Source: Macrostomum hystrix
Lineage: Eukaryota; Animalia; Platyhelminthes
Assembly (NCBI GenBank): GCA_950097015.1
Contig: CATNEN010000002.1
Location: forward strand, 7,006,001-7,070,000
Length of the DNA stretch: 64,000 nt
Direction of reading: 5' to 3'
In this document: piece by piece, positions 36,771 through 64,000 of the stretch
Numbering within the stretch: the stretch's first letter is position 1
Layout of the letters: each line of letters begins with the position of its first letter
Notes under the pieces: model-generated
What the model saw: only the letters and a program-made list of their open reading frames with translations
Database searches by the model: none
What the model was told of the DNA's origin: nothing
Translations under genes and position numbers: made by a program

Positions 36771-39700
36771 TAGTGGAGCAGTGATAGACTCTGTGGGGCA
36801 GTGATAGACTCTGTGGGGCAGTGATAGACTCTGTGGGGCAGTGATAGACTCTGTGGGGCAGTGATAGACTCTGTGGGGCAGTGATAGACTCTGTGGGGCA
36901 GTGATAGACTCTAGTGGGGCAGTGATAGACTCTGTGGGGCAGTGATAGACTCTGTGGGGCAGTGATAGACTCTGTGGGGCAGTGATAGACTCTGTGGGGC
37001 AGTGATAGACTCTGTGGGGCAGTGTTAGACTCTGTGGGGCAGTGATAGACTCTGTGGGGCAGTGATAGACTCTGTGGGGCAGTGTTAGACTCTGTGGGGC
37101 AGTGTTAGACTCTGTGGGGCAGTGATAGACTCTAGTGGAGCAGTGATAGACTCTGTGGGGCAGTGATAGACTCTGTGGGGCAGTGATAGACTCTGTGGGG
37201 CAGTGATAGACTCTGTGGGGCAGTGATAGACTCTGTGGGGCAGTGTTAGACTCTGTGGGGCAGTGATAGACTCTGTGGGGCAGTGATAGACTCTGTGGGG
37301 CAGTGTTAGACTCTGTGGGGCAGTGTTAGACTCTGTGGGGCAGTGATAGACTCTAGTGGAGCAGTGTTAGACTCTGTGGGGCAGTGATAGACTCTGTGGG
37401 GCAGTGATAGACTCTGTGGGGCAGTGATAGACTCTAGTGGGGCAGTGATAGACTCTAGTGGGGCAGTGTTAGACTCTGTGGGGCAGTGATAGACTCTGTG
37501 GGGCAGTGATAGACTCTAGTGGGGCAGTGATAGACTCTAGTGGAGCAGTGTTAGACTCTGTGGGGCAGTGATAGACTCTAGTGGGGCAGTGATAGACTCT
37601 GTGGGGCAGTGATAGACTCTGTGGGGCAGTGATAGACTCTGTGGGGCAGTGATAGACTCTAGTGGGGCAGTGTTAGACTCTGTGGGGCAGTGATAGACTC
37701 TGTGGGGCAGTGATAGACTCTGTGGGGCAGTGATAGACTCTGTGGGGCAGTGATAGACTCTGTGGGGCAGTGATAGACTCTGTGGGGCAGTGATAGACTC
37801 TGTGGGGCAGTGATAGACTCTGTGGGGCAGTGATAGACTCTGTGGGGCAGTGATAGACTCTGTGGGGCAGTGATAGACTCTGTGGGGCAGTGTTAGACTC
37901 TGTGGGGCAGTGATAGACTCTAGTGGGGCAGTGATAGACTCTGTGGGGCAGTGATAGACTCTAGTGGGGCAGTGATAGACTCTGTGGGGCAGTGATAGAC
38001 TCTGTGGGGCAGTGATAGACTCTGTGGGGCAGTGATAGACTCTAGTGGAGCAGTGATAGACTCTAGTGGAGCAGTGTTAGACTCTAGTGGAGCAGTGTTA
38101 GACTCTGTGGGGCAGTGATAGACTCTGTGGGGCAGTGATAGACTCTGTGGGGCAGTGTTAGACTCTGTGGGGCAGTGTTAGACTCTAGTGGAGCAGTGTT
38201 AGACTCTAGTGGAGCAGTGTTAGACTCTGTGGGGCAGTGATAGACTCTAGTGGGGCAGTGATAGACTCTAGTGGGGCAGTGATAGACTCTAGTGGGGCAG
38301 TGATAGACTCTGTGGGGCAGTGATAGACTCTAGTGGGGCAGTGATAGACTCTAGTGGGGCAGTGATAGACTCTGTGGGGCAGTGATAGACTCTGTGGGGC
38401 AGTGATAGACTCTGTGGGGCAGTGATAGACTCTGTGGGGCAGTGATAGACTCTAGTGGGGCAGTGATAGACTCTGTGGGGCAGTGATAGACTCTAGTGGA
38501 GCAGTGATAGACTCTAGTGGAGCAGTGATAGACTCTAGTGGAGCAGTGATAGACTCTAGTGGAGCAGTGATAGACTCTGTGGAGCAGTGATAGACTCTGT
38601 GGGGCAGTGTTAGACTCTGTGGGGCAGTGTTAGACTCTAGTGGAGCAGTGTTAGACTCTAGTGGAGCAGTGTTAGACTCTGTGGGGCAGTGATAGACTCT
38701 AGTGGGGCAGTGATAGACTCTAGTGGGGCAGTGATAGACTCTAGTGGAGCAGTGATAGACTCTGTGGAGCAGTGATAGACTCTGTGGGGCAGTGATAGAC
38801 TCTGTGGGGCAGTGATAGACTCTGTGGGGCAGTGATAGACTCTGTGGGGCAGTGATAGACTCTGTGGGGCAGTGATAGACTCTGTGGGGCAGTGATAGAC
38901 TCTGTGGGGCAGTGATAGACTCTGTGGGGCAGTGATAGACTCTGTGGGGCAGTGATAGACTCTGTGGGGCAGTGATAGACTCTGTGGGGCAGTGTTAGAC
39001 TCTAGTGGAGCAGTGTTAGACTCTGTGGGGCAGTGATAGACTCTGTGGGGCAGTGATAGACTCTAGTGGGGCAGTGATAGACTCTGTGGGGCAGTGATAG
39101 ACTCTAGTGGGGCAGTGATAGACTCTGTGGGGCAGTGATAGACTCTGTGGGGCAGTGATAGACTCTGTGGGGCAGTGATAGACTCTAGTGGAGCAGTGAT
39201 AGACTCTAGTGGAGCAGTGTTAGACTCTAGTGGAGCAGTGTTAGACTCTGTGGGGCAGTGATAGACTCTGTGGGGCAGTGATAGACTCTGTGGGGCAGTG
39301 TTAGACTCTGTGGGGCAGTGTTAGACTCTAGTGGAGCAGTGTTAGACTCTAGTGGAGCAGTGTTAGACTCTGTGGGGCAGTGATAGACTCTAGTGGGGCA
39401 GTGATAGACTCTAGTGGGGCAGTGATAGACTCTAGTGGGGCAGTGATAGACTCTGTGGGGCAGTGATAGACTCTAGTGGGGCAGTGATAGACTCTGTGGG
39501 GCAGTGATAGACTCTAGTGGAGCAGTGATAGACTCTGTGGGGCAGTGATAGACTCTGTGGGGCAGTGATAGACTCTGTGGGGCAGTGATAGACTCTAGTG
39601 GGGCAGTGATAGACTCTGTGGGGCAGTGATAGACTCTAGTGGAGCAGTGATAGACTCTAGTGGAGCAGTGATAGACTCTAGTGGAGCAGTGATAGACTCT

Positions 39701-40002
39701 AGTGGAGCAGTGATAGACTCTAGTGGAGCAGTGATAGACTCTGTGGAGCAGTGATAGACTCTAGTGGAGCAGTGTTAGACTCTAGTGGAGCAGTGTTAGA
39801 CTCTGTGGGGCAGTGATAGACTCTGTGGGGCAGTGTTAGACTCTGTGGGGCAGTGTTAGACTCTGTGGGGCAGTGATAGACTCTGTGGGGCAGTGATAGA
39901 CTCTGTGGGGCAGTGATAGACTCTGTGGGGCAGTGATAGACTCTGTGGGGCAGTGATAGACTCTGTGGGGCAGTGATAGACTCTAGTGGAGCAGTGATAG
40001 AC
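36771..40002. repeat. 3.2-kb 20/21-bp satellite (GCAGTGATAGACTCTGTGGG and variants)
   Basis: About 160 tandem copies with few variant positions. Confidence 0.97.
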
Positions 40003-40974
40003 TGTTTGCAGCTGTTTGAGTTCTAGGTGCTCATCTTCGGCTCATGCTTGACCCTTGGACTCTGAACCTGACAACCACTTAACAAGTAGAGTCACAGCAG
40101 ACACACCTGGGGACAGTTGTTGAGTTGTGTCAATTAAACTGCGGCGCAACAATTAGGTGCGAAGGAGGTGAGGAGGCTAAATTATTAATTACTTTCCCAG
40201 CTGTGTTGCCTGTTAAAATACATGGCCGTGTGAAGAAAAATGTTTTTCGTGATAAACAGCAAACCAAAAATAAAAAAATCCTGCATTCGTTTTAAAGCTA
40301 ATGATTCGTAGCAATTCTTAATTGACACATTCCAATTTCACAGCTAGACACATTCGTGAGAGCAACTTACGTTTCGATGAAAAGTTTTTTACTGTAAAAT
40401 AACCCTCTGCATTTGAGAAAAAAAAATTAAAAAAATTTGGATTATATGCCTGACTCCAATGAACCTGAGGGTGAGAGATCTGCGAGACTGAGACTGAGAG
40501 ATCTGTGAGACTGAGACTGAGAGATCTGTGAGACTGAGAGGTCTGTGAGACTGAGGGTGAGGTTGAGATGGTGAGACTAGATAATGTGGAGAAGTGAATG
40601 AAGTTAGAGAGATGTGAATAGTACAGCGAGAGATGGATAAGTGATTATTTTAGAGAGACGAAAAGTGAAAAATTGTTCAGCAAACAAACAAAGTGTTGCT
40701 CCTGTTGTGTCTCAGACATGCGATGTTGGTCATGCGTTAATTATTAGTGCAGTTGTATAGCATTGCCGGATAGAATCCGCAGATAATTTTGGCCTACATC
40801 AAGCTTCCTTCTTCCTGGCTAAGTAGTAATTATGGCTGTGTCAGCAGCAGCCTGAGACAAATACTAGGGAAGATTTCTGGGATGATGGTAGACCTAAAAG
40901 TTCGTGTTGAATGAGTAGGCGAGACTTATGGGCGGATACTTCTAGGGAGAGTGTTAGACTTAGGGTTAGATCCG

Positions 40975-52300: not shown

Positions 52301-53253
52301 TGACTTTCTCATCGGCAGCCAGTGTACACTTCACTGTGCCTTGGAGGTTGGCCCTCAAGGGCGTAAATTGCACGTCAAGCCCACAAGCCTTCTCTCCTCG
52401 GTTGCACCCCAAATGAATGTGGCCTCGCCGCGGAATCGAGCTCAGACCTTGGTGCGCGAGGCAAAAGCGTTAGACCGCTCTCACCCAACCTCCCATCTAG
52501 ACACGTTGTACTTCATATGCTTTTGAAGCAGTTATTGTGGTAATTTTAATATCAGAATCCAAGAAACCAAGCGCGAAAAACGCCCACCTCAAACAGAAGG
52601 TTGAGAGCTTCTTCTTCCGTCTGCGCCAGGTGCACATTCAAGCCTTTGACGTAGACTCCGCCGTTCTCTTCGGCGATGACCAGCGGGCTGGTGGCTTCCT
52701 GACTACTGGGCATTGTGCCCAGCAGGTCAAGCATTGTGTCATTGTAGATCTCCAGGTAGGTGATGCGTACAGTGATGGCCAGGTCGGTCTTATTGCCGAT
52801 CTCCTTGTACAGGTGGCTCAGCGCGCGAGGCACGAGGCCGCGATGATGGAAAATCTCCGTGACGCCGGTGATGGTGAAGGTCTTGCCAGCGCCCGTCTGG
52901 CCGTAGCACATGATGGTGCCATTGTAGCCGGCCAAGCCACTCTCGATGAGATCGGCGCCAAGGGTCTCGTAGACGTCCTGCTGCGAGGCATTGTGGAAGA
53001 TGCCATCGGTGCGGAAGACCCACTCAGTGCGCTGGTTGCTGGCAAAGCCACGCTGCTGTTGCTGCTGCTGCTGCTGTTGCTGCTGTTGCTGTTGGTCTCC
53101 GGCTCGCGGCATGCAGATCTGCAGCGACCGGCCTTCCGGGTCCAATCGGAGTACTTCGTCGGCGAAGTTCTGGCTGGGCCGGACTCGAACCCAGACCTTC
53201 ACCTTCTTGCTGCGCTTGCCGCCGCTCTTCATCGTTGCGCGCTGCGGGACCAT
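46397..53253 (-). CDS. KIF9: Kinesin-9 family motor, ~828 aa; exons 53253-52588, 52120-51731, 51621-51544, 50453-50385, 49202-49098, 48884-48347, 47718-47416, 47347-47118, 46504-46397
   Basis: KVKVWVRVRPSQNFADEVL, YGQTGAGKTFT (P-loop), YLEIYND, NKNSSRSHTIF, FVDLAGSER, INKSLSFLEQ and HVPYRQSKLTHYLKDSIGG, then VQRYIDGDLDEID and EFDKWYAESF. All eight introns are GT-AG and phase-compatible. Confidence 0.95.
46600..47045. repeat. 44-bp minisatellite (CCGCCAAGTCTCTCGAACGGACTAATAACATCAAAGGAGAGTTA)
   Basis: In the last KIF9 intron. Confidence 0.92.
47970..48295 (+). mobile_element. tRNA-derived SINE copy with intact head
   Basis: A box GTGGCAGAGCGGTTAA, B-box-like GAGCTCGATTC, head ending CCA at ~48045, then the shared body. 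Confidence 0.88.
49375..49860. repeat. 32-bp minisatellite (TTCTTCAGGTCACTGTCAACTGCTACCCCCAG)
   Basis: About 15 copies in a KIF9 intron. Confidence 0.95.
50615..51515. repeat. 22-bp minisatellite (TAGCCTCAGAATCCTCAGTATC)
   Basis: About 41 copies in a KIF9 intron. Confidence 0.95.
52180..52500 (-). mobile_element. tRNA-derived SINE copy in KIF9 intron 1
   Basis: Minus-strand head GGGTGAGAGCGGTCTAACGC...GAGCTCGATTCCGCGGCGAGGCCA, then the shared body and an ATT-rich tail. Confidence 0.88.
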
Positions 53254-55624: not shown

Positions 55625-55990
55625 TTAGTCCTAGACATATTCCTAGACCTAGACCTATATTAGACCTAGACCTATTCCTAGACCTAGACCTATAGACCTA
55701 GACCTATTCCTAGACCTAGACCTATAGACCTAGACCTATTCCTAGACCTAGACCTATAGACCTAGACCTATTCCTAGACCTATTCCTAGACCTATTCCAA
55801 ACCTATTCCAAGACCTATTCCTAGACCTACCTACACCTATTCCTAGGCCTAGACCTAGACCTATTCTTAGACCTATTCCTAGACCTAGACCTAGACTAGA
55901 CCTAGACCTATTCCTATTCAAAGACCTTTTCCTAGACCTATTCCTAGATCTAGACCTATTCCTAGACCTATTTAGACCTATTCCTAGACA
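55625..55990. repeat. Hexamer array of CCTAGA and CCTATT units
   Basis: Read directly. Often arranged as CCTAGA-CCTAGA-CCTATT. Confidence 0.92.
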
Positions 55991-56084
55991 TATTTTCCTC
56001 GCTCGCACTCACTCTCTCTATTGAAATTGCAATAGCGGCAATTCAGCCCGGCTGTGTAGTCTATGGTTTTTTATATAGCAATTC

Positions 56085-56305
56085 TTATGCAGCAAAAGAG
56101 CCCGGCCGAGTCCCCTATGCTTTCTTATGCAGCAAAAGAGCCCGGCCGAGTCCCCTATGCTTTCTTATGCAGCAAAAGAGCCCGACTCAATCCTTAATGC
56201 TTTCTTATGCAGCAAAAGAGCCCGACTCAACCCTTAATGCTTTCTTATGCAGCAAAAGAGCCCGACTCAACCCTTAATGCTTTCTTATGCAGCAAAAGAG
56301 CCCGG
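56085..56305. repeat. 40-bp minisatellite (ATGCAGCAAAAGAGCCCGGCCGAGTCCCCTATGCTTTCTT)
   Basis: About 5.5 copies in two variants. Confidence 0.92.
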
Positions 56306-56680
56306 GACCCGCTTTGCTATAATTCTAAATTGATTACTACTGATAGCAATTGTTGCAGTGTTAGGTGCGAGATCGGTTGGCTGATTGAATACATATACCA
56401 GTCATGATAATTTTGTTTCAAATGGCGCAGTTGTGACAGCAGCGGAATGCAGTTCGAACATTCTATGAAATGGGTTTCATGCAGGGTATTATCTTACGTT
56501 ACATGATGACTGCAGCCCCATGCCACTGCCCGCACCTGAGTTAGGGACCCATTTCGCACTGTGATGATCGATCGAAATTTTTCCAATATACTGTGGGATA
56601 TATAGTGACTATAGCGGTATTAGCTAGTGTTAGACGCGTTGCTGCTGCACTCACGACATTGTTGGGTGCGTAGAACCACG

Positions 56681-57100
56681 ATGAATGCTCATCCTGTGGC
56701 GCTGTTCGGCTCGCCGGCCATCGTGGCACTCCTGGCCAGATGCGACATCGCCTGCCTGGCCCCGTTCCTGGCGCACCGAGGACGACTGGAGCAGCTGACC
56801 TGCCTGCAGCGCCACTGCCCGAATGCTGAGCTGAATGCCACCCAGCTACACACCTTGCTGAAGAGCCTCCTGGACTGGCTGCTACAACACCAGACAGCTG
56901 CGGGCTACGAGACTATCCTGGAGGTGACCTGCCTAACAGAGAACGAGGCTTTCGACTTGGCCGAGCTGCTAGGCCTGCTGGAGGACACCTGTTCGGAGCT
57001 GCAGCACATTCTACACGGGCTGGACTACTGGCGCGGCGTGCAGCAAAGGGCAAGACTGCGAGAGTTGTTCCGGAGTCGCGAATATCGAATGGAGCAGTAG
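56681..57100 (+). CDS. 139-aa helical protein, possible CARD/death-fold
   Basis: GC-rich ORF in AT-rich DNA with host-like codon use and AATAAA at 57176-57181. Hydrophobic pattern ALLARCDIACLAPFLAHRGRL...SLLDWLL...GYETIL...DLAELL resembles CARD helices, by eye only. Confidence 0.6.
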   Translation: MNAHPVALFGSPAIVALLARCDIACLAPFLAHRGRLEQLTCLQRHCPNAELNATQLHTLLKSLLDWLLQHQTAAGYETILEVTCLTENEAFDLAELLGLLEDTCSELQHILHGLDYWRGVQQRARLRELFRSREYRMEQ

Positions 57101-57254
57101 CAGCAGCAAAAAGACTTAGCTACTAGACAGTTAAAATAACTTATCCCTGTTTGTGAACCCAAACCAAGTCTGCACCAATAAAAGAACTAAGGTGGCAGAT
57201 CCAACTCGATACCGGGAAGTTTATTTTGGATAACCTAAAAATAGACCGTATAAG

Positions 57255-57387
57255 AGTACAGTTCGTGGTGCGCGCACAATCCCTAAGAAATATATACATA
57301 AGACGATGCGAGGTGCTTATCTACCTAAAAATAGCAGGCAAGTCCTTATATATTTTTAAGTAATGTGCGCGCACTATGAACTGTACT
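57255..57387. other. Inverted-repeat module A
   Basis: Left arm AGTACAGTTCGTGGTGCGCGCAC pairs with right arm GTGCGCGCACTATGAACTGTACT (two G-T mismatches). The inner TATATA-containing segments pair partially. Confidence 0.9.
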
Positions 57388-57482
57388 TCTAGCTAAAAGT
57401 ACACAATCAACTTAACCGGGATCCGAATTAACCTAATTAAGCACCTATTAATAGAATCTGAGTCGATCAGTTTAAAACTATA

Positions 57483-57520
57483 AGATCAATATGCGCGCAC
57501 ATGTGCGCGCATATTGATCT
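57483..57520. other. Perfect 38-bp palindrome A
   Basis: AGATCAATATGCGCGCACA|TGTGCGCGCATATTGATCT. Confidence 0.97.
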
Positions 57521-57739
57521 ACTAGAAGTAGTAGTAACACTGGTACTATCTGCTGCTCATCCTAAATAGCCTGCTCCTCCTCCTTGGGACGTACTTGGGA
57601 CTCTATTATTAATAGCGAATCCCACCCTGTTGCACCCAGTTGAAGTTGAGTACCTGGGACTGCGTTGGCTTTCTGCAGCCTGCTCATTTTCATACATCCA
57701 AATTTGAACGCGCCTATAATTAACCTGCGGAAGCACAGA

Positions 57740-60535
57740 ATGTCGTTCAACTTTTCAACCGGCTACGACAGCGACGATGAGCGAATTGCGGCCGCGCTGG
57801 ACGAGTTTGAGAGAGTTGCCCAAGATAGTAACTCCGCCGGGCCGGTAGCGTCATCAACTCGCCAGCCACCATCACAGCGAAAAAGAAAGAGCGCTCCCTC
57901 TCAACGTCAGATTGTCAATGCAGCAGCCGCAGAATCTACGCCAGGCCCAAAGCGTATATATACTTTCACCCCAGTGCAGACAGCAGCGGTGGCTAACATC
58001 AGCAGCGACGCCGACGACTTCAGCCTGCTGCCATTGAGCGGTGTCATGCGCCTAAACACTGGAGAGCAGCAGCCTGCCAGTGACCAGATGTCCACAGGCA
58101 ATCAGCAGCCACCGCCTGCCAGTATATCGGCCGTCTACGCGCCCATCTCCCACGCGATGGCAGCCTCAGCCTCGACTGCGCCAAAAGGGAGCATGCTGGC
58201 TTGGCTCGGAGATCAGCACCGGAGTGCCAAGAAGGCCACCAGCAGATGGTCATCGCCGGCAGCGATCAGGCACGTCAGGCGACATGCTCCTGCCAACTGC
58301 GGCGATGGCGACGGGGCGGCGTCTGATGCGCCCGACATGTCCACGGCAGCCCTACAGCCTCGCAGCCCCGTCGTCATCGAGATTGAGGACGTCGACGACG
58401 AGCGCGCCGATAACGGCAGGCCGACAGCGGCAACTCGCACAAAGGCGGAGCCATCGGAGCCTAACGAGCAGGAGGCGGCGATGGATAGCGACGACCGCGA
58501 TGCTCTGCAGGCACTGCTGGACTACGAGGCGTCCACCGTTGCGCTGTCAGTCGCTGCAGATCCCCCACCGTCGGGCGCTGATGCGGAAATGGAGGAGGCC
58601 GCCAGCACGGTGCCGAAACCGCCTCAAGTCGCGGCCGACCAACAACAGCAGCCAGGGAGGCGGAGATTCCGTTTCCAGCGGCTCGAAACGACTGCTCCCG
58701 CTGTTGCTGCTGCTGCCGACTGCTCCATTGTGGGCGCCATGGTGCCAGACTCGCAGCCCGATGGCCGACGATTAGCAGTCGCCAAGACCACACCGTCTCA
58801 GCGTCCGGAAGATGAGACGACGGCCTACGTGGTGTCGCCTGGCACAGCGGCATTCGCAGCAGCCGTGGTGGCCGCTATGAATGAGGCCAGCCAGTCCGTC
58901 CCTGTCGGCGAGGAGTGGTGGCGCATATTAACACCACAGCCGCTGCAGCAACAAGAGCAGGTGCAGCTCGAGCGTCCTCCCTCGCTGGTGCCCTTCAGCT
59001 ACAGTCCGCCGGCGTCTGCGGCACAGCTTATTCACTTCCTCCAGCAACAGCAGGGGGACAGCGAGGCGAGCGGGAGCGGGGTCGGCGGCGCCAGAGGACA
59101 ACGAGGCGGCCGAGGGGTGCGACGGCTGGGCCAAAATCCGCTGCTTAATGCGGCAGCAGCACAGCAGCAGTTCACTGTGACGCGCTCAGTCAGCCGGCCG
59201 CTCGCAATGACCGGTGCTGCTCCTGCGGAGCGACTGCCCGAGGACAGCGGCATTCTGACCGGGCGCCGCTATTTGCACGTCTTCCACATCGACAAGGTGC
59301 GCTTCGTCGGTGAGTCACTTGCTTTGTTCATAAGCTCTGAATCATATAACCAGCTGCTGGCATCCACTGTTTCCATGCTGCCTACATAAACAGGTCGTGC
59401 CAAAGTATATCTGGGCGAGGCTCTGGAGGCACACTGTGTCGAGCTCGTCCTGGCGTCCAGCCCGGGCCTCTGCGTCGGCATGGATGAGTTCTGCGACCGG
59501 CGGCTAGTCGCTGACCCGCTCTCCGTCGACGAGATGGAGCAACAGCAGCAGCAGCAGCAGCAGCACAGCGAGTATCGGCCACACCGCACTCTGTCCGGCT
59601 TCGTGCGCCTGGAGACCAACGCGGCCGGCTGGCATTTGTACGAGCTGCTGTTCAGCCTGCTGCCTAGCCGAGACGAGGGACGCTGCTTTGTGGTGCCCGA
59701 CCGGACCACCCTGACGCTGTGCGGCGTCCGCTCGCCAGACAGTGTGCTGCGGAGCCTGACGCAGCACGACGGCTACCCGCTGCTGATCGGGATCGGCGCC
59801 ACGCAGTGCAGCATGCTGGTGCAAGCGACTCGGTGGGCGCTGTCCTACCCGCTGACTGCCAACCTGCCCGACCAGACTGACGGCTTCTTGTTGGCCCACC
59901 AGCAGATGCGCGCCACGTTGCTGGGGGTCTTTAGAGACGTGCAGCGCCAGCGCCGGATTCGCAGGGAGCAGCTCGCCGGCTGTTCCGCATGTTCCACCGA
60001 GGCTGCCGACATTAGGAACCTGTGCCCGCTCCGAGAGGCCGTCTGCACAGCCCTTCGCCACCAGTCGGGCGTTGTGTACCTTTACGGGCCGTCGGGAGTC
60101 GGCAAGACCACCGCCGTCGAGCGCCACCTGGGCCAGGAGCGCGTCTTCTGTCCGGTCATCAAGCGCTTCGGTGGCAATGACTTCATGTTCGACGGCCTGG
60201 ACACCGCGCGCCACTCCGTCATCTTTCTGGACGAGGTGCGGCCGCACATGTTCGAGGGCGGCGACCTGGAGACCACGCTGTTGCGCCTGCTGAACGGCAA
60301 CAGCTTCCTGGTCAATGCGAAGCACCAGGCGCACGTCTACCTGGACTGGGGCCAACGGCTGGTGATCATGGCCGGCCACGCCTCACCTGACGACTACCCG
60401 GCTGACGTGCAGCGGCGCCTGCGCAACGAGGGCAACACGTGCGTCGAGGTCGACCACGACATCGAGGCCTGCCAGGGGGGGTGCCGCCAGCAGCCAATGT
60501 TCGGAGCCGCCGCCGCCAACGCCCAGGTTGAATGA
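57740..60535 (+). CDS. Spliced Rep-like protein, ~903 aa (exons 57740-59309, 59394-60535): disordered N-terminus, degenerate HUH-like region, SF3 helicase
   Basis: An 84-nt GTGAGT...AAACAG phase-1 intron removes the in-frame TAA and joins the 574-aa and 351-aa ORFs. Walker A GPSGVGKT (60086-60109), FMFDGL..HSVIFLDE (Walker B, 60221-60235), LLRLLNG..VNAK (B'), RLVIMAGH (motif C region) and arginine finger QRRL. Confidence 0.85.
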
Positions 60536-62008
60536 GGCCGCCTTTATATGTCTGTCTGTCTGTCTGTCTATTGCTAAATTATTTCATCCCTGCGCCCGTA
60601 TTTTGTCTCCACCACCATCTTAAAGCGGGTTAGCAGATGTGGGCAGGCAGAAATAGCTAGACGGCCAAAATATTACATAACAAAATATTAGTCCTTATTG
60701 GGCTAAATAAGGAATGGCTTTTGGGTTCGGCTGTTTAACAGCACCATATATTATAATCTATACCTGGCACGCAGTTGCAGAAAACGGGGTAGCAGAAATG
60801 TGCGCGGACTATAGCAATTTATAAAGCATTAGATGGGATTAGTTTAATTGAATTAAATAGCGCGCAGTGTTTTCCTAGTGTTTTTGTTGCTCGTCAGTCT
60901 AGATGTGCTAAGAGATGGAGATGGCATTTATTACTTGTTCTCAGGATCGCTTCTCGCTCTTATCTGATTGCTTTTATTTTGAGTTCTATTATTTCAGAGT
61001 CAATATTTTCATTTAGCATATGTCGCAGGCTGTCGACAATTTCAATTGTCCCCATTTTATTGCCGTTCTACTTTTTCTGTACCGGCTCCATTAAACTTTT
61101 TAATCCCTCACCGCCAACAAATAGTTGTTGTTGTTGTTGCTGTTGCTGCTCTCCAACAAGTTAGATAGATGGGCAGCTAGAATAATTAACAATGATTGCC
61201 TACCTTGTGGAGCGCAGATAAAAATCACTTTAAACGCAGTCGTCGTCGTTGGGGTCGCAGCTGGAGCGGAGCAATCGGAACAGTGTAGGGGGCAGTCGAA
61301 ACGAAATAGTAGATCACGAAGGAGCTGATTTGGTTGATTAATAGAGTTGGTATTGAAAATCAAAGTGTAGCTTGGGAACGATCGAGTCTGTCTTAATCGA
61401 TTGGCATAGAGAAATCAATCAGTGCGCGAGCTAGCTCTCTTTGACTTGTGTGCTCAAGATGAGCAATACAGTCCTTCCTGATAAAATTTAGTTTCTATGT
61501 GCCTAAGCTTTGTCTATGTCTTGAGTTTATCGCATTCCTTTATTAATAGTAGTCTAAAAATAATTTTACACACACGCAGTTGTTATGTGCTTATTTGGGC
61601 GCTATTTGTGTTATTATAATTTATAATAATTGAGCTATAATAATTTGAGCAAGTATACTAGTATATGGTATGAAAAGCTGACTGCATGCATTAATGTGTG
61701 AATAAAGGACATAAATCAAGAAAAAGCATTCGATCAAGAACTACATGTAGACGGTACGTATGGATATGAAAAAAACTAATTTAAGATGAGAATCAACAAG
61801 TGGCATCTGCAACAACAAGCAATTAAAATACATGTAGTAATGTGTGCATTAAAATACAATTTGGATGGACGCAAAAAGCTATACATATAATATAGTACGA
61901 TTTAATAACGGCAATTAACAGCTGCATATAGTGCTACTCAGTTATTTATAGATTTTATATGAAAAACTAAAATTTCAAATTCGCGCTAAATTCTACGAAA
62001 TTCAATGT

Positions 62009-62125
62009 GTACAGTCTGTAGTGCGCGCACATTCCCTAAAAAATATATAAGGCATGTCAGCTCTAATTTTAGAACGACGATCCTTATATATTTTTTAAGT
62101 ATTGTGCGCGCACTATGAACTGTAC
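62009..62125. other. Inverted-repeat module B
   Basis: 44-nt arms (62009-62052 and 62082-62125) with 6 mismatches around a 29-nt loop. The right arm is almost identical to that of module A. Confidence 0.92.
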
Positions 62126-62332
62126 CTAAATCTAAAATTAAATTGCTTACTTGACTACTATAAGTAGAGCAGTTAGCAGCATTTGTTTAATAATTGTCAG
62201 ATAAATCTATGGCTAATTAAATAATTCTATCAACAAAAACAATAAAGTATAATATTATCAACGGGAGTAATCAGTCAATCAATACAATCAATATTCTTAA
62301 CTATAGCATATAATATCAATTATAATAACATT

Positions 62333-62370
62333 AGCGTATAAAGCGCGCACATGTGCGCGCTTTATACGCT
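62333..62370. other. Perfect 38-bp palindrome B
   Basis: AGCGTATAAAGCGCGCACA|TGTGCGCGCTTTATACGCT. Confidence 0.97.
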
Positions 62371-62600
62371 GCAGTAACATGCAGTCAAACGAATTCAATT
62401 ATCCCTCCCTCGAAGGCCTGTGCATGTTTTCTCTGCGTGTTTTCTCTCTGTCCCGGCCCCCTTTATCTGCCCCACGGTGTTTTTCACTCACTATTTAAAT
62501 ATTTAATAATATTTTATATTATTAATATAATATAAATTAAATATTTTATATAAAATCTTAAATAAAGCAGGCAGACAGACAGGCGGGCAGGCAGGGCGAA

Positions 62601-64000
62601 TCAATCAAAATTATGCTCCGCCACTGAGTGCAGCCGCCGTCGCTTTCCGGCCACCGGTCTACCGTGCAGGACTGCGTCGGCTCGTTGGGTGCTCGCCGCC
62701 ACCTCCCCACTTCCACCAGCCAGGCTGCTGATGAGTCCCTGGGTCGGCGGCCTAACTATTGGTCGCATCTCTGCGTCACCTGATGGCACCACAAACCGGC
62801 GGACAATATCGCGGCTGCGAATTACTGTGCCCATCTCGGTGGCCATCTGGGCATTGTGCCCATAATTGTACCGGATGACAGCTGCAGATGTGCCGTGCGC
62901 TCTGGCGAACATATCCAGCTGCTCCGGCTCCATCATGAGCACTACGGCACAGAGGGTGCGACGCCAGTGCGTGGCCACATAGTGCCGACCCAGTACTCGC
63001 TGCCCGCCTGCGCTGATCATGCGGCTCATTGCCGACTGGCTGTACACACCGCCGAACACATCAATGAAGACGGTCGGCGACTCCGGTTGCTCGATGCCGC
63101 GAGCAGCAAGCGACGGCACGATATATTCGTCGTGCAGGCGCAGCAAGGCCTCGCAGAATATATCCGGCAGCACCATCCTGGCTGGGTCGCCGGAGTGTCC
63201 GACCTTGTGCGGCACTTCACGCAGCGGCAGGACGAGATGCGAGTGCCCAGCCAGATCGGCAGCGGACGGCCCGCTCCCCCCATCTGCACTTTGCGTGTGT
63301 TGGCGGAACAGCTGTTTTTGGTCGGCCGACGCGTTTCGCCGAACCGAACGGTCGACCAGGTGTCGCCGTCTCAAGTATATCCACGGCAGAAGTCGCAGTG
63401 CCTGCTCGACGCTGCAGTAGAAAAGCATCTCCTGCACTATCCGCCGCAGACATCCGGCGACTGAAGGCGCCATCATCTGCTTCGCCGTTGTCTTTAGTGT
63501 CATCAGCGATGCCATCAGCGACCACACCTGCTGCCTGCATGCCCCATTCGCCGTCGACTGGCAGTGAAGACCAGCTGTGTCTTTGGAGCATGATGAAAAA
63601 GCGGTCTCGACGGGCGAACACGGCATCAACCTCGTCTACGTTGACGTAGGTGTTCATAAATGCCACCTGCCGCTCATTGTGGCCAAGCTTGTAGACGGCC
63701 TGCATAGTATAAATGTGGTTGCGTTTACTTCTAGTAGATAGCAGCACGAAACCAAATAGAACTAACTGTCATTAATGCAGCTGCTGTGCAGCTATAGCCT
63801 ACCTGCTGTATGGCTCGGACATTGCCGAACTCGCCACGAGCCTGCTGCACCACGCTGCTAAGGCGGGCGATGAGAGCCTGCTCAGCCGCCAGCGGGTTGT
63901 TGGCCTTCTGCGCCAACTGCATTCTCCAGCAGACGCCACTGCCGACAGAGTCGACGTCCTCAATAGCAGGGCGCTCGGTGTCAGGCGAGGGTGAGTCGAT
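62601..64000 (-). CDS. Tyrosine recombinase (phage-integrase family), spliced and 5'-incomplete; exons >64000-63803, 63699-63528, 63460-62601
   Basis: Catalytic-order motifs: IYLRRRHL (first Arg, ~63370), PHKV (Lys, 63206), VFIDVFGGVYSQSAMSRMI, THWRRT (HxxR, 62969-62958) and ARAHGTSAAVIRYNYGH (Tyr, 62864). Intron 63802-63700 (GTAGGC...ATGCAG) is well supported. Intron 63527-63461 (GTGTGG...CTTCAG) restores the frame but has a weaker donor. Confidence 0.82.

Follow-up and report, generated by a model that had tools for sequence, protein, structure and literature searches.

Evidence for a repeated, integrated DNA unit of the flatworm Macrostomum hystrix with a predicted CRESS-type helicase and a likely tyrosine recombinase

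Background

The bacterial pCRESS integrative plasmids and the end modules of polinton-like viruses (PLVs) are the closest known systems to the unit analyzed in this study, which lies at the right end of a 64,000-nt stretch of Macrostomum hystrix DNA (assembly GCA_950097015.1, contig CATNEN010000002.1, positions 7,006,001 to 7,070,000; this whole stretch is referred to below as the window) and combines genes for a predicted CRESS-type superfamily 3 (SF3) helicase and a likely tyrosine recombinase (YR). Most rep genes of pCRESS plasmids are located near a YR integrase; att repeats enclose the two, and structural genes are missing (PMC6668415; this and the other articles are cited for the available parts of their text). 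The PLV end modules comprise inverted repeats, an SF3 primase-helicase and a YR (PMC11296320). Their inverted repeats were proposed to act as both origin and recombination substrate (PMC11296320; 10.64898/2026.06.19.733378), and replicase swapping has been described in PLV-related viruses (10.64898/2026.10.13.758929, 10.64898/2026.06.19.733378).

Three further groups are relevant. Cryptons are eukaryotic YR DNA elements with 4-6 bp terminal direct repeats, for which a circular intermediate has been proposed; the available main text of the article describing them does not contain the word helicase (PMC3212892). Replitrons and Helitrons rely on an active HUH nuclease, the former without a helicase and the latter with an SF1 helicase, and a YR is described for neither in the available text of PMC10288648. 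The replicases of papilloma- and polyomaviruses carry an inactivated HUH domain, whose fold was shown structurally (PMC6668415). We found no description of a YR combined with a CRESS-type SF3 helicase for animal nuclear genomes in the literature searched (Repbase, subscription journals and bioRxiv supplements, which lay outside this search, may hold one).

Results

The region between 56.0 and 64.0 kb of the window contains a 138-aa orphan open reading frame (ORF1), a gene for a predicted spliced helicase protein of 903 aa and, convergent to it, a gene for a divergent YR. The latter continues past the window end (64,000), with its 5′ part outside, and the visible stretch is only the left part of the repeated unit. 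The G+C content of the three genes (0.54-0.69 in 200-nt windows) exceeds that of the AT-rich spacers (0.28-0.47). This arrangement of GC-rich genes, with the helicase gene on the plus strand and the recombinase gene on the minus strand, had been noticed in a first-pass annotation of the same DNA, as had the GT-AG introns of both genes, and these observations hold. The genes are composed as follows:

57740..59309 (+): helicase gene exon 1, encoding about 520 aa in which A, S, P and Q are abundant, with no Pfam match
59310..59393 (+): predicted in-frame GT-AG intron (84 nt, phase 1)
59394..60535 (+): helicase gene exon 2, encoding a domain of no assigned family, a CxxC linker and then the predicted CRESS-type SF3 helicase
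60086, 60218, 60359 and near 60416 (+): SF3 motifs, namely Walker A, Walker B, the motif C region and the Arg finger, respectively
62601..63699 (−): last exon of the YR-like gene, with R near 63371, K at 63206, HxxR at 62969-62958 and Y at 62864
63802..63700 (−): predicted GT-AG intron of 103 nt, phase 0, G+C content 0.41
63803..64000 (−): upstream exon of the recombinase gene, still open where the window ends

The splicing of both introns is predicted from the DNA alone.

Eight sequencing runs from two studies match part of the stretch, two of them matching half or more of its words. We compared the contigs of four of these runs (X1, X4, X5 and X7) with the stretch. The contigs of X1, which may be the window's own sample, cover all 30 bins, spacers included, at a summed depth of 421-1374, while those of X4, X5 and X7 cover 28, 10 and 12 bins, respectively. 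Among the 132 contigs of X1, 60 are at least 99% identical to the window and the remaining 72 are less alike (37 at 95-99%, 23 at 90-95% and 12 below 90%). Depth in the coding bins is 2-3 times that of the spacer floor, which would suit diverged relatives whose similarity is confined to the genes. There are also contigs with internal deletions of 301 nt (inside the YR gene) and 76 nt, at a depth of about 100. These data support the assignment of the stretch to a repeated, integrated family.

The helicase is located in the C-terminal portion of the product predicted from the two joined exons. The product of exon 1 is probably disordered, judging from its composition, and the intron has a lower G+C content (0.44) than the flanking exons (0.63-0.65). 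As a reference we used 124 CRESS-like loci of IMG/VR, 32 of which encode a Rep ORF of at least 230 aa with a Walker A motif. A helicase profile of these 32 Reps gave 14.0 bits with exon 2, compared with 5.6 bits for a kinesin P-loop control. Global hhalign alignment to the CRESS Reps (E=3.7e-5, probability 44%) paired Walker A, a WWDGY-like motif, Walker B, B′, motif C and the Arg finger. Motif C is atypical in having no Asn. In the Atlas, the helicase scored 0.92-0.95 to CRESS Reps, plasmid Reps or unnamed clusters. On this evidence the predicted product is a CRESS-type SF3 helicase. Of 7,997 candidates that were scored, a single one proved homologous to the helicase exon, namely BOX15_Mlig013629g1 of Macrostomum lignano (P0001), which is encoded on a 220-kb contig and shares 70% identity across 235 aa; the gene thus appears to have one or more diverged relatives. 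An unnamed Rotifera-labelled Atlas cluster (one member with a record) was at or near the top for the helicase.

The first-pass annotation had named this protein a CRESS-like Rep, which is borne out for the helicase, but not for the nuclease. The best-placed matches before the helicase, PHRTLSGF and SVLRSLTQ, contain no HUH or YxxK motif. The score for motifs I, II and III in order was 8.3, versus 84-103 in six real Reps; it was reached by 30 of 500 shuffles, and the reversed control gave 8.2. A nuclease hidden Markov model gave −1.1 bits on the domain preceding the helicase, versus 3.0 bits for the best of 300 shuffles. This absence is not peculiar to the window copy, because an X1 contig (59573-60427, depth 559) shows no differences from the window across the region of the missing motifs. 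Since the protein has no detectable HUH nuclease and no HUH and YxxK motifs, rolling-circle initiation is unsupported.

The support from sequence and fold for the YR being weak, this gene is likely, but not proven, to encode a tyrosine recombinase. The residues R, K, HxxR and Y are present in order (by eye). A phmmer search of 1.84 billion representatives identified four homologs (E 2e-18 to 2e-6), whose JGI or ENA contigs are 0.6-2.4 kb long. These four metagenomic proteins retain R163, R164 and Y196-G197, and the second Arg and the Tyr are invariant in all five rows of the family; the first His is retained in none of the four homologs, and the H/W position is Thr in all five. Word-based searches gave no YR homolog and, with alignment, just two already found (fused or longer forms lay outside these searches). 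In the Atlas, a cluster carrying the name tyrosine recombinase (29% PF00589) matched the YR at 0.93, and two clusters without a name, of which one is chordate, matched it at 0.94.

The Foldseek comparison called for in the first-pass annotation ranked XerH, Tre, Cre and XerH as the top four PDB rows, as would suit a YR, although with E values of 0.49-1.4 and a weak model. In VIA, the best whole-domain match to this model was XerA (Z 5.1, rmsd 4.6, 137 aligned), although a short match to a DnaA helix scored higher (Z 5.6). A single-sequence fold was unusable (pLDDT 34).

All four variants listed from reads in the upstream YR exon are synonymous in the predicted frame only (the variant reading covers 40 of 235 variants), in agreement with the proposed intron. 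An intact recombinase could not be confirmed: the window copy is broken, because the frame switches near 63,450, where no consensus intron would bypass the break, and the X1 contigs vary in length at this point. We rejected a second intron at this site, since a consensus donor is present in 0 of 80 in-frame GT..AG pairs and the G+C content does not dip, and also a 72-nt intron (phase mismatch).

Four orphan metagenomic YR-like proteins (P0002-P0005) make up a family that shows DxRR/LRR and T-S-x8-Y-G signatures and has no significant Pfam match. A Chordata-labelled unnamed Atlas cluster (36 members with a record) was at or near the top for the YR. This cluster and the Rotifera-labelled one may mark related elements in other animals.

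The helicase gene is flanked by two paralogous modules (57255-57520 and 62009-62370) with components in the same order, whose centres are 4,746 bp apart:

57255..57387 (no strand): module 1, imperfect hairpin with arms of about 42 bp carrying GTGCGCGCACA
57483..57520 (no strand): module 1, perfect 38-nt palindrome with the core GCGCGCACATGTGCGCGC
62009..62125 (no strand): module 2, imperfect hairpin, paralogous to that of module 1
62333..62370 (no strand): module 2, perfect 38-nt palindrome with the same 18-nt core and different outer arms

The four hairpin arms of about 42 bp are identical to each other at 30-36 of 42 positions, ungapped, and a perfect, loop-less palindrome stands 180 or 285 bp to the right of its hairpin. 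Paired palindromic modules had been reported around the Rep gene, and the statistics agree: their fold z-scores are −9.1 and −9.5 (0 of 100 shuffles equally stable), and they supply two of the only three perfect palindromes of at least 18 nt in the 64 kb. The outer 10 bp differ between the two palindromes, which both remain perfect at 38 nt; divergence of the outer arms with conserved symmetry and length suggests that the symmetry is under selection or is renewed mechanistically. A half-site, GCGCGCACA, occurs in all six half-sites (the four hairpin arms and both palindromes), pointing inward. The YR gene is located outside the two modules.

A search for a nonanucleotide-like origin gave two loose matches, neither within a hairpin loop. 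The 18-nt palindrome core was found in six IMG/VR loci, none of which encodes a relative, and these matches were attributed to chance. Module-like sequence occurs in other flanks in X1, X5 and X7. A diverged relative of module 2 (62069-62181) has unrelated flanks in X5 (depth 23) and X7 (depth 73), and the same module-2-like variants are present in X1 at depth 69. This suggests a second family or non-autonomous copies.

The remaining features of the locus are:

55626..55989 (no strand): degenerate (TAGACC/TATTCC)n array, of a kind common in the window and an uncertain part of the element
56082..56304 (no strand): 40-bp tandem repeat, 5.6 copies (TRF)
56681..57100 (+): ORF1, 138 aa, of no identified family
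61070..61414 (−): doubtful small fourth spliced gene, recognized by eye, with CxxC, polyglutamine (polyQ) and low G+C content

The left boundary, previously drawn at 55,625, was not confirmed, and minisatellites abound in the window (73 TRF tandem-repeat rows), which is also rich in introns. In contigs of high depth, the last unit of the 40-bp repeat continues into the element, and X1 and X4 contigs begin 35 and 56 nt, respectively, to the left of 56310. This repeat is possibly a terminal or iteron-like one. X1 and X7 contigs start matching at 56623, about 60 nt upstream of ORF1, with different upstream sequence, which suggests a second subfamily or another flank.

ORF1 had been described as CARD-like, an identity that gained no support: ORF1 has no Pfam or PDB sequence match at E≤10, to a death-fold domain or to any other. 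It gave just one 33-aa match to an unnamed PHROG family (E=0.0026) and a match below threshold in NCBIfam. Among its listed read variants, two of five are synonymous, which is uninformative. The candidate fourth gene shares a GTAGGC donor with the YR intron, and Pfam gave no significant match for it. Contigs of X5 and X7 cluster on this candidate and on ORF1. An Rfam search yielded sub-threshold miRNA-type hairpin matches only, and a tRNA search found none.

The neighboring gene, named KIF9 in the first-pass annotation, was correctly recognized as a kinesin gene (Pfam Kinesin, E=5e-37). It starts at 53,232 on the minus strand, and the genes of the element lie about 3.4 kb beyond. Its motor domain contains a polyQ insert (window positions 53052-53091). 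Positions 1-52000 contain dense, varied minisatellite arrays between several long GC-rich ORFs, e.g. a 20-mer in 159 copies (36773-40003).

Discussion

Given what is observed, namely the genes present, the motifs of the helicase, the anatomy of the modules and copies among the reads that have diverged or carry internal deletions, we place about even confidence in the following explanation: the repeated integrated unit is a capsid-less replicon, in which the YR excises and inserts the DNA and the helicase opens a palindromic origin for host polymerases. Every step of this mechanism is one that we infer. The GCGCGCACA half-site would be a putative binding site of an element protein. The YR would cut and rejoin DNA at the GCGCGCACA sites, or at unseen ends, to give a free circular form, which host polymerases would copy once the helicase had opened the palindromic modules. 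Since the HUH and YxxK motifs are missing, the helicase may be a non-nicking origin opener, in the manner of the replicases of papilloma- and polyomaviruses, and not a rolling-circle initiator. YR-like relaxases are described in PMC8152469, and the YR was considered as a substitute nickase; this idea was set aside, because 3′ linkage blocks rolling-circle priming (PMC8152469, available text). The introns and the host-like codon use would point to expression in the nucleus. The window copy itself is defective in its recombinase.

Several observations weigh against this explanation. The contigs contain no end, target site, empty site or circle, none spans the unit, and the depth of X1 gives no copy number, having no single-copy baseline; the reads therefore show a variant family and not copy number, an end or recent movement, and a duplicated genome would also yield some variants. 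The linkage of YR and helicase is known from one assembly alone. Scans for related loci in viral (IMG/VR), metagenome and prokaryote collections gave no second locus; tblastn searches gave no match among plasmids and three among phages, with E values of 2-7. The YR has no match in Pfam, PHROG, NCBIfam or PDB sequences, both His positions of its pentad vary in the family, and its fold model is poor (pLDDT 46.5), with a best Foldseek E value of 0.49 and all VIA Z-scores below 8. Finally, the location of the YR gene outside the modules means that a circle cut between them would be without it.

The first-pass annotation had proposed a new kind of animal mobile element. The repeated, integrated unit with a likely YR and a predicted CRESS-type SF3 helicase stands; the pairing itself is not new, because pCRESS plasmids carry a YR with a nuclease-helicase Rep (PMC6668415, available text) and PLVs a YR with an SF3 helicase. 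As in pCRESS1-9 (PMC6668415), the gene for a CRESS-type SF3 helicase adjoins one for a YR integrase, on evidence that is weak but concordant, and no structural genes are in view. The flatworm unit differs from these plasmids in (i) its animal nuclear locus, (ii) its predicted spliceosomal introns, (iii) a 520-aa N-terminal extension, and (iv) its paired hairpin-plus-palindrome modules, with no att repeats in view. Its helicase has the Walker A, B, B′, C and Arg finger set of CRESS and pCRESS Reps, and is without their HUH/HUQ motif II and YxxK motif III. With the PLV end modules, as far as these are described in the available text, it shares a YR adjoining an SF3 helicase and a eukaryotic, integrated state; in contrast, its helicase aligns with CRESS Reps, no primase was detected, and no capsid genes are present in the visible part.

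Like Cryptons (PMC3212892), the unit is a YR-bearing eukaryotic DNA element, but it has no Crypton or DUF3504 Pfam match, and the YR is not its only mobility gene, the helicase gene lying in the same high-depth unit, provided that this unit is one element. It resembles Replitrons and Helitrons (PMC10288648, available text) in Rep ancestry, introns and palindromic signals within a eukaryotic transposon, and lacks their active HUH Rep transposase. Its SF3 helicase is preceded by a domain without HUH signature motifs, as in the replicases of papilloma- and polyomaviruses; unlike in these, the helicase is CRESS-like, a YR is present, and the preceding domain is known from sequence alone. By analogy, the unit would work like a pCRESS plasmid or a PLV end module, while it differs from CRESS/pCRESS Reps, Replitrons and Helitrons in lacking the HUH motifs and from Cryptons in not having the YR alone.

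Four other explanations were considered. In the main one, the stretch would be the end module, serving integration and replication, of a larger DNA virus that has integrated (one that is polinton-like, adomavirus-like or similar), with capsid genes located past the window. Against it, the visible 8 kb contains no capsid, ATPase or primase gene. The helicase also aligns with CRESS Reps (a comparison of which a D5-type profile was not part), and the IMG/VR scans gave no relative. PLV genomes are compact, unlike this locus with its long AT-rich spacers. We consider such a virus rather unlikely, while recognizing that in PLVs an SF3 primase-helicase stands between inverted repeats and a YR (PMC11296320), that replicase swapping and replicase-bracketing repeats are common (10.64898/2026.10.13.758929), that adomaviruses with CRESS Reps exist (PMC11071296; all three as described in their available text), and that the high X1 depth reaches the window end, with a contig continuing 412 nt past it.

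The modules, which are in the same order, flank the helicase gene only and fold strongly as single strands, would also suit a combination of two elements, i.e. a module-bracketed helicase cassette of about 4.75 kb in or beside a Crypton-like YR element, whose recombinase may mobilize the cassette in the manner of an integron integrase acting on cassettes flanked by hairpins. Module-like sequence with other flanks (loose ends at 62069-62181) points the same way. However, the X1 depth floor of about 420-500 is unbroken across both modules and beyond either side, the pattern that repetition of the whole as a single unit would give, and we consider the combination improbable.

It is very doubtful that the YR is a telomere-resolvase-like enzyme which converts the 38-nt palindromes into covalently closed hairpin ends, the free form being a linear, hairpin-ended plasmid. 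Replicated hairpin telomeres are known from the TelN and ResT systems, and the two palindromes resemble them, being perfect, loop-less and equally long, with outer arms that have diverged; both His positions of the YR are atypical as well. Nevertheless, the palindromes are internal, so that cutting both would part the YR from the helicase, and no protelomerase is present among the listed fold or family matches, which is a weak test. Least probable of all are host genes that arose from an old viral insertion and are now domesticated and immobile, for which the introns, polyQ, lost nuclease motifs and a third-position G+C content of 0.67-0.86 (0.69-0.79 in the host) could be cited, and against which stand the many diverged and deleted variants, the frameshifted YR of the window copy and the conserved non-coding palindromes.

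Returning to the capsid-less replicon, we tentatively raise the possibility, in which we have distinctly limited confidence, that it represents a new order of animal DNA transposons: capsid-less, intron-bearing and self-amplifying, with a CRESS-derived helicase that no longer nicks but opens palindromic origins like the E1 protein of papillomaviruses, and a new YR family that would excise, resolve and integrate the element at the same palindromes. No replication gene has been described for Crypton-type YR transposons (PMC3212892, available text), and Rep-derived transposons move by the HUH nuclease itself. If such an order exists, it would be a nuclear animal counterpart of the bacterial pCRESS plasmids and an independent switch from rolling-circle to double-stranded replication. 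As an animal element that splits the work between a recombinase and a nuclease-less CRESS helicase, it would connect the integrative plasmids of bacteria with PLV end modules and papilloma-type replicases, between which there is a gap. Hardly any members of the YR family have been sampled (4 homologs in 1.84 billion representatives), and it offers atypical catalytic positions together with defined candidate target palindromes. A culturable flatworm genus apparently hosts the element, so that circles, ends and expression could be sought directly.

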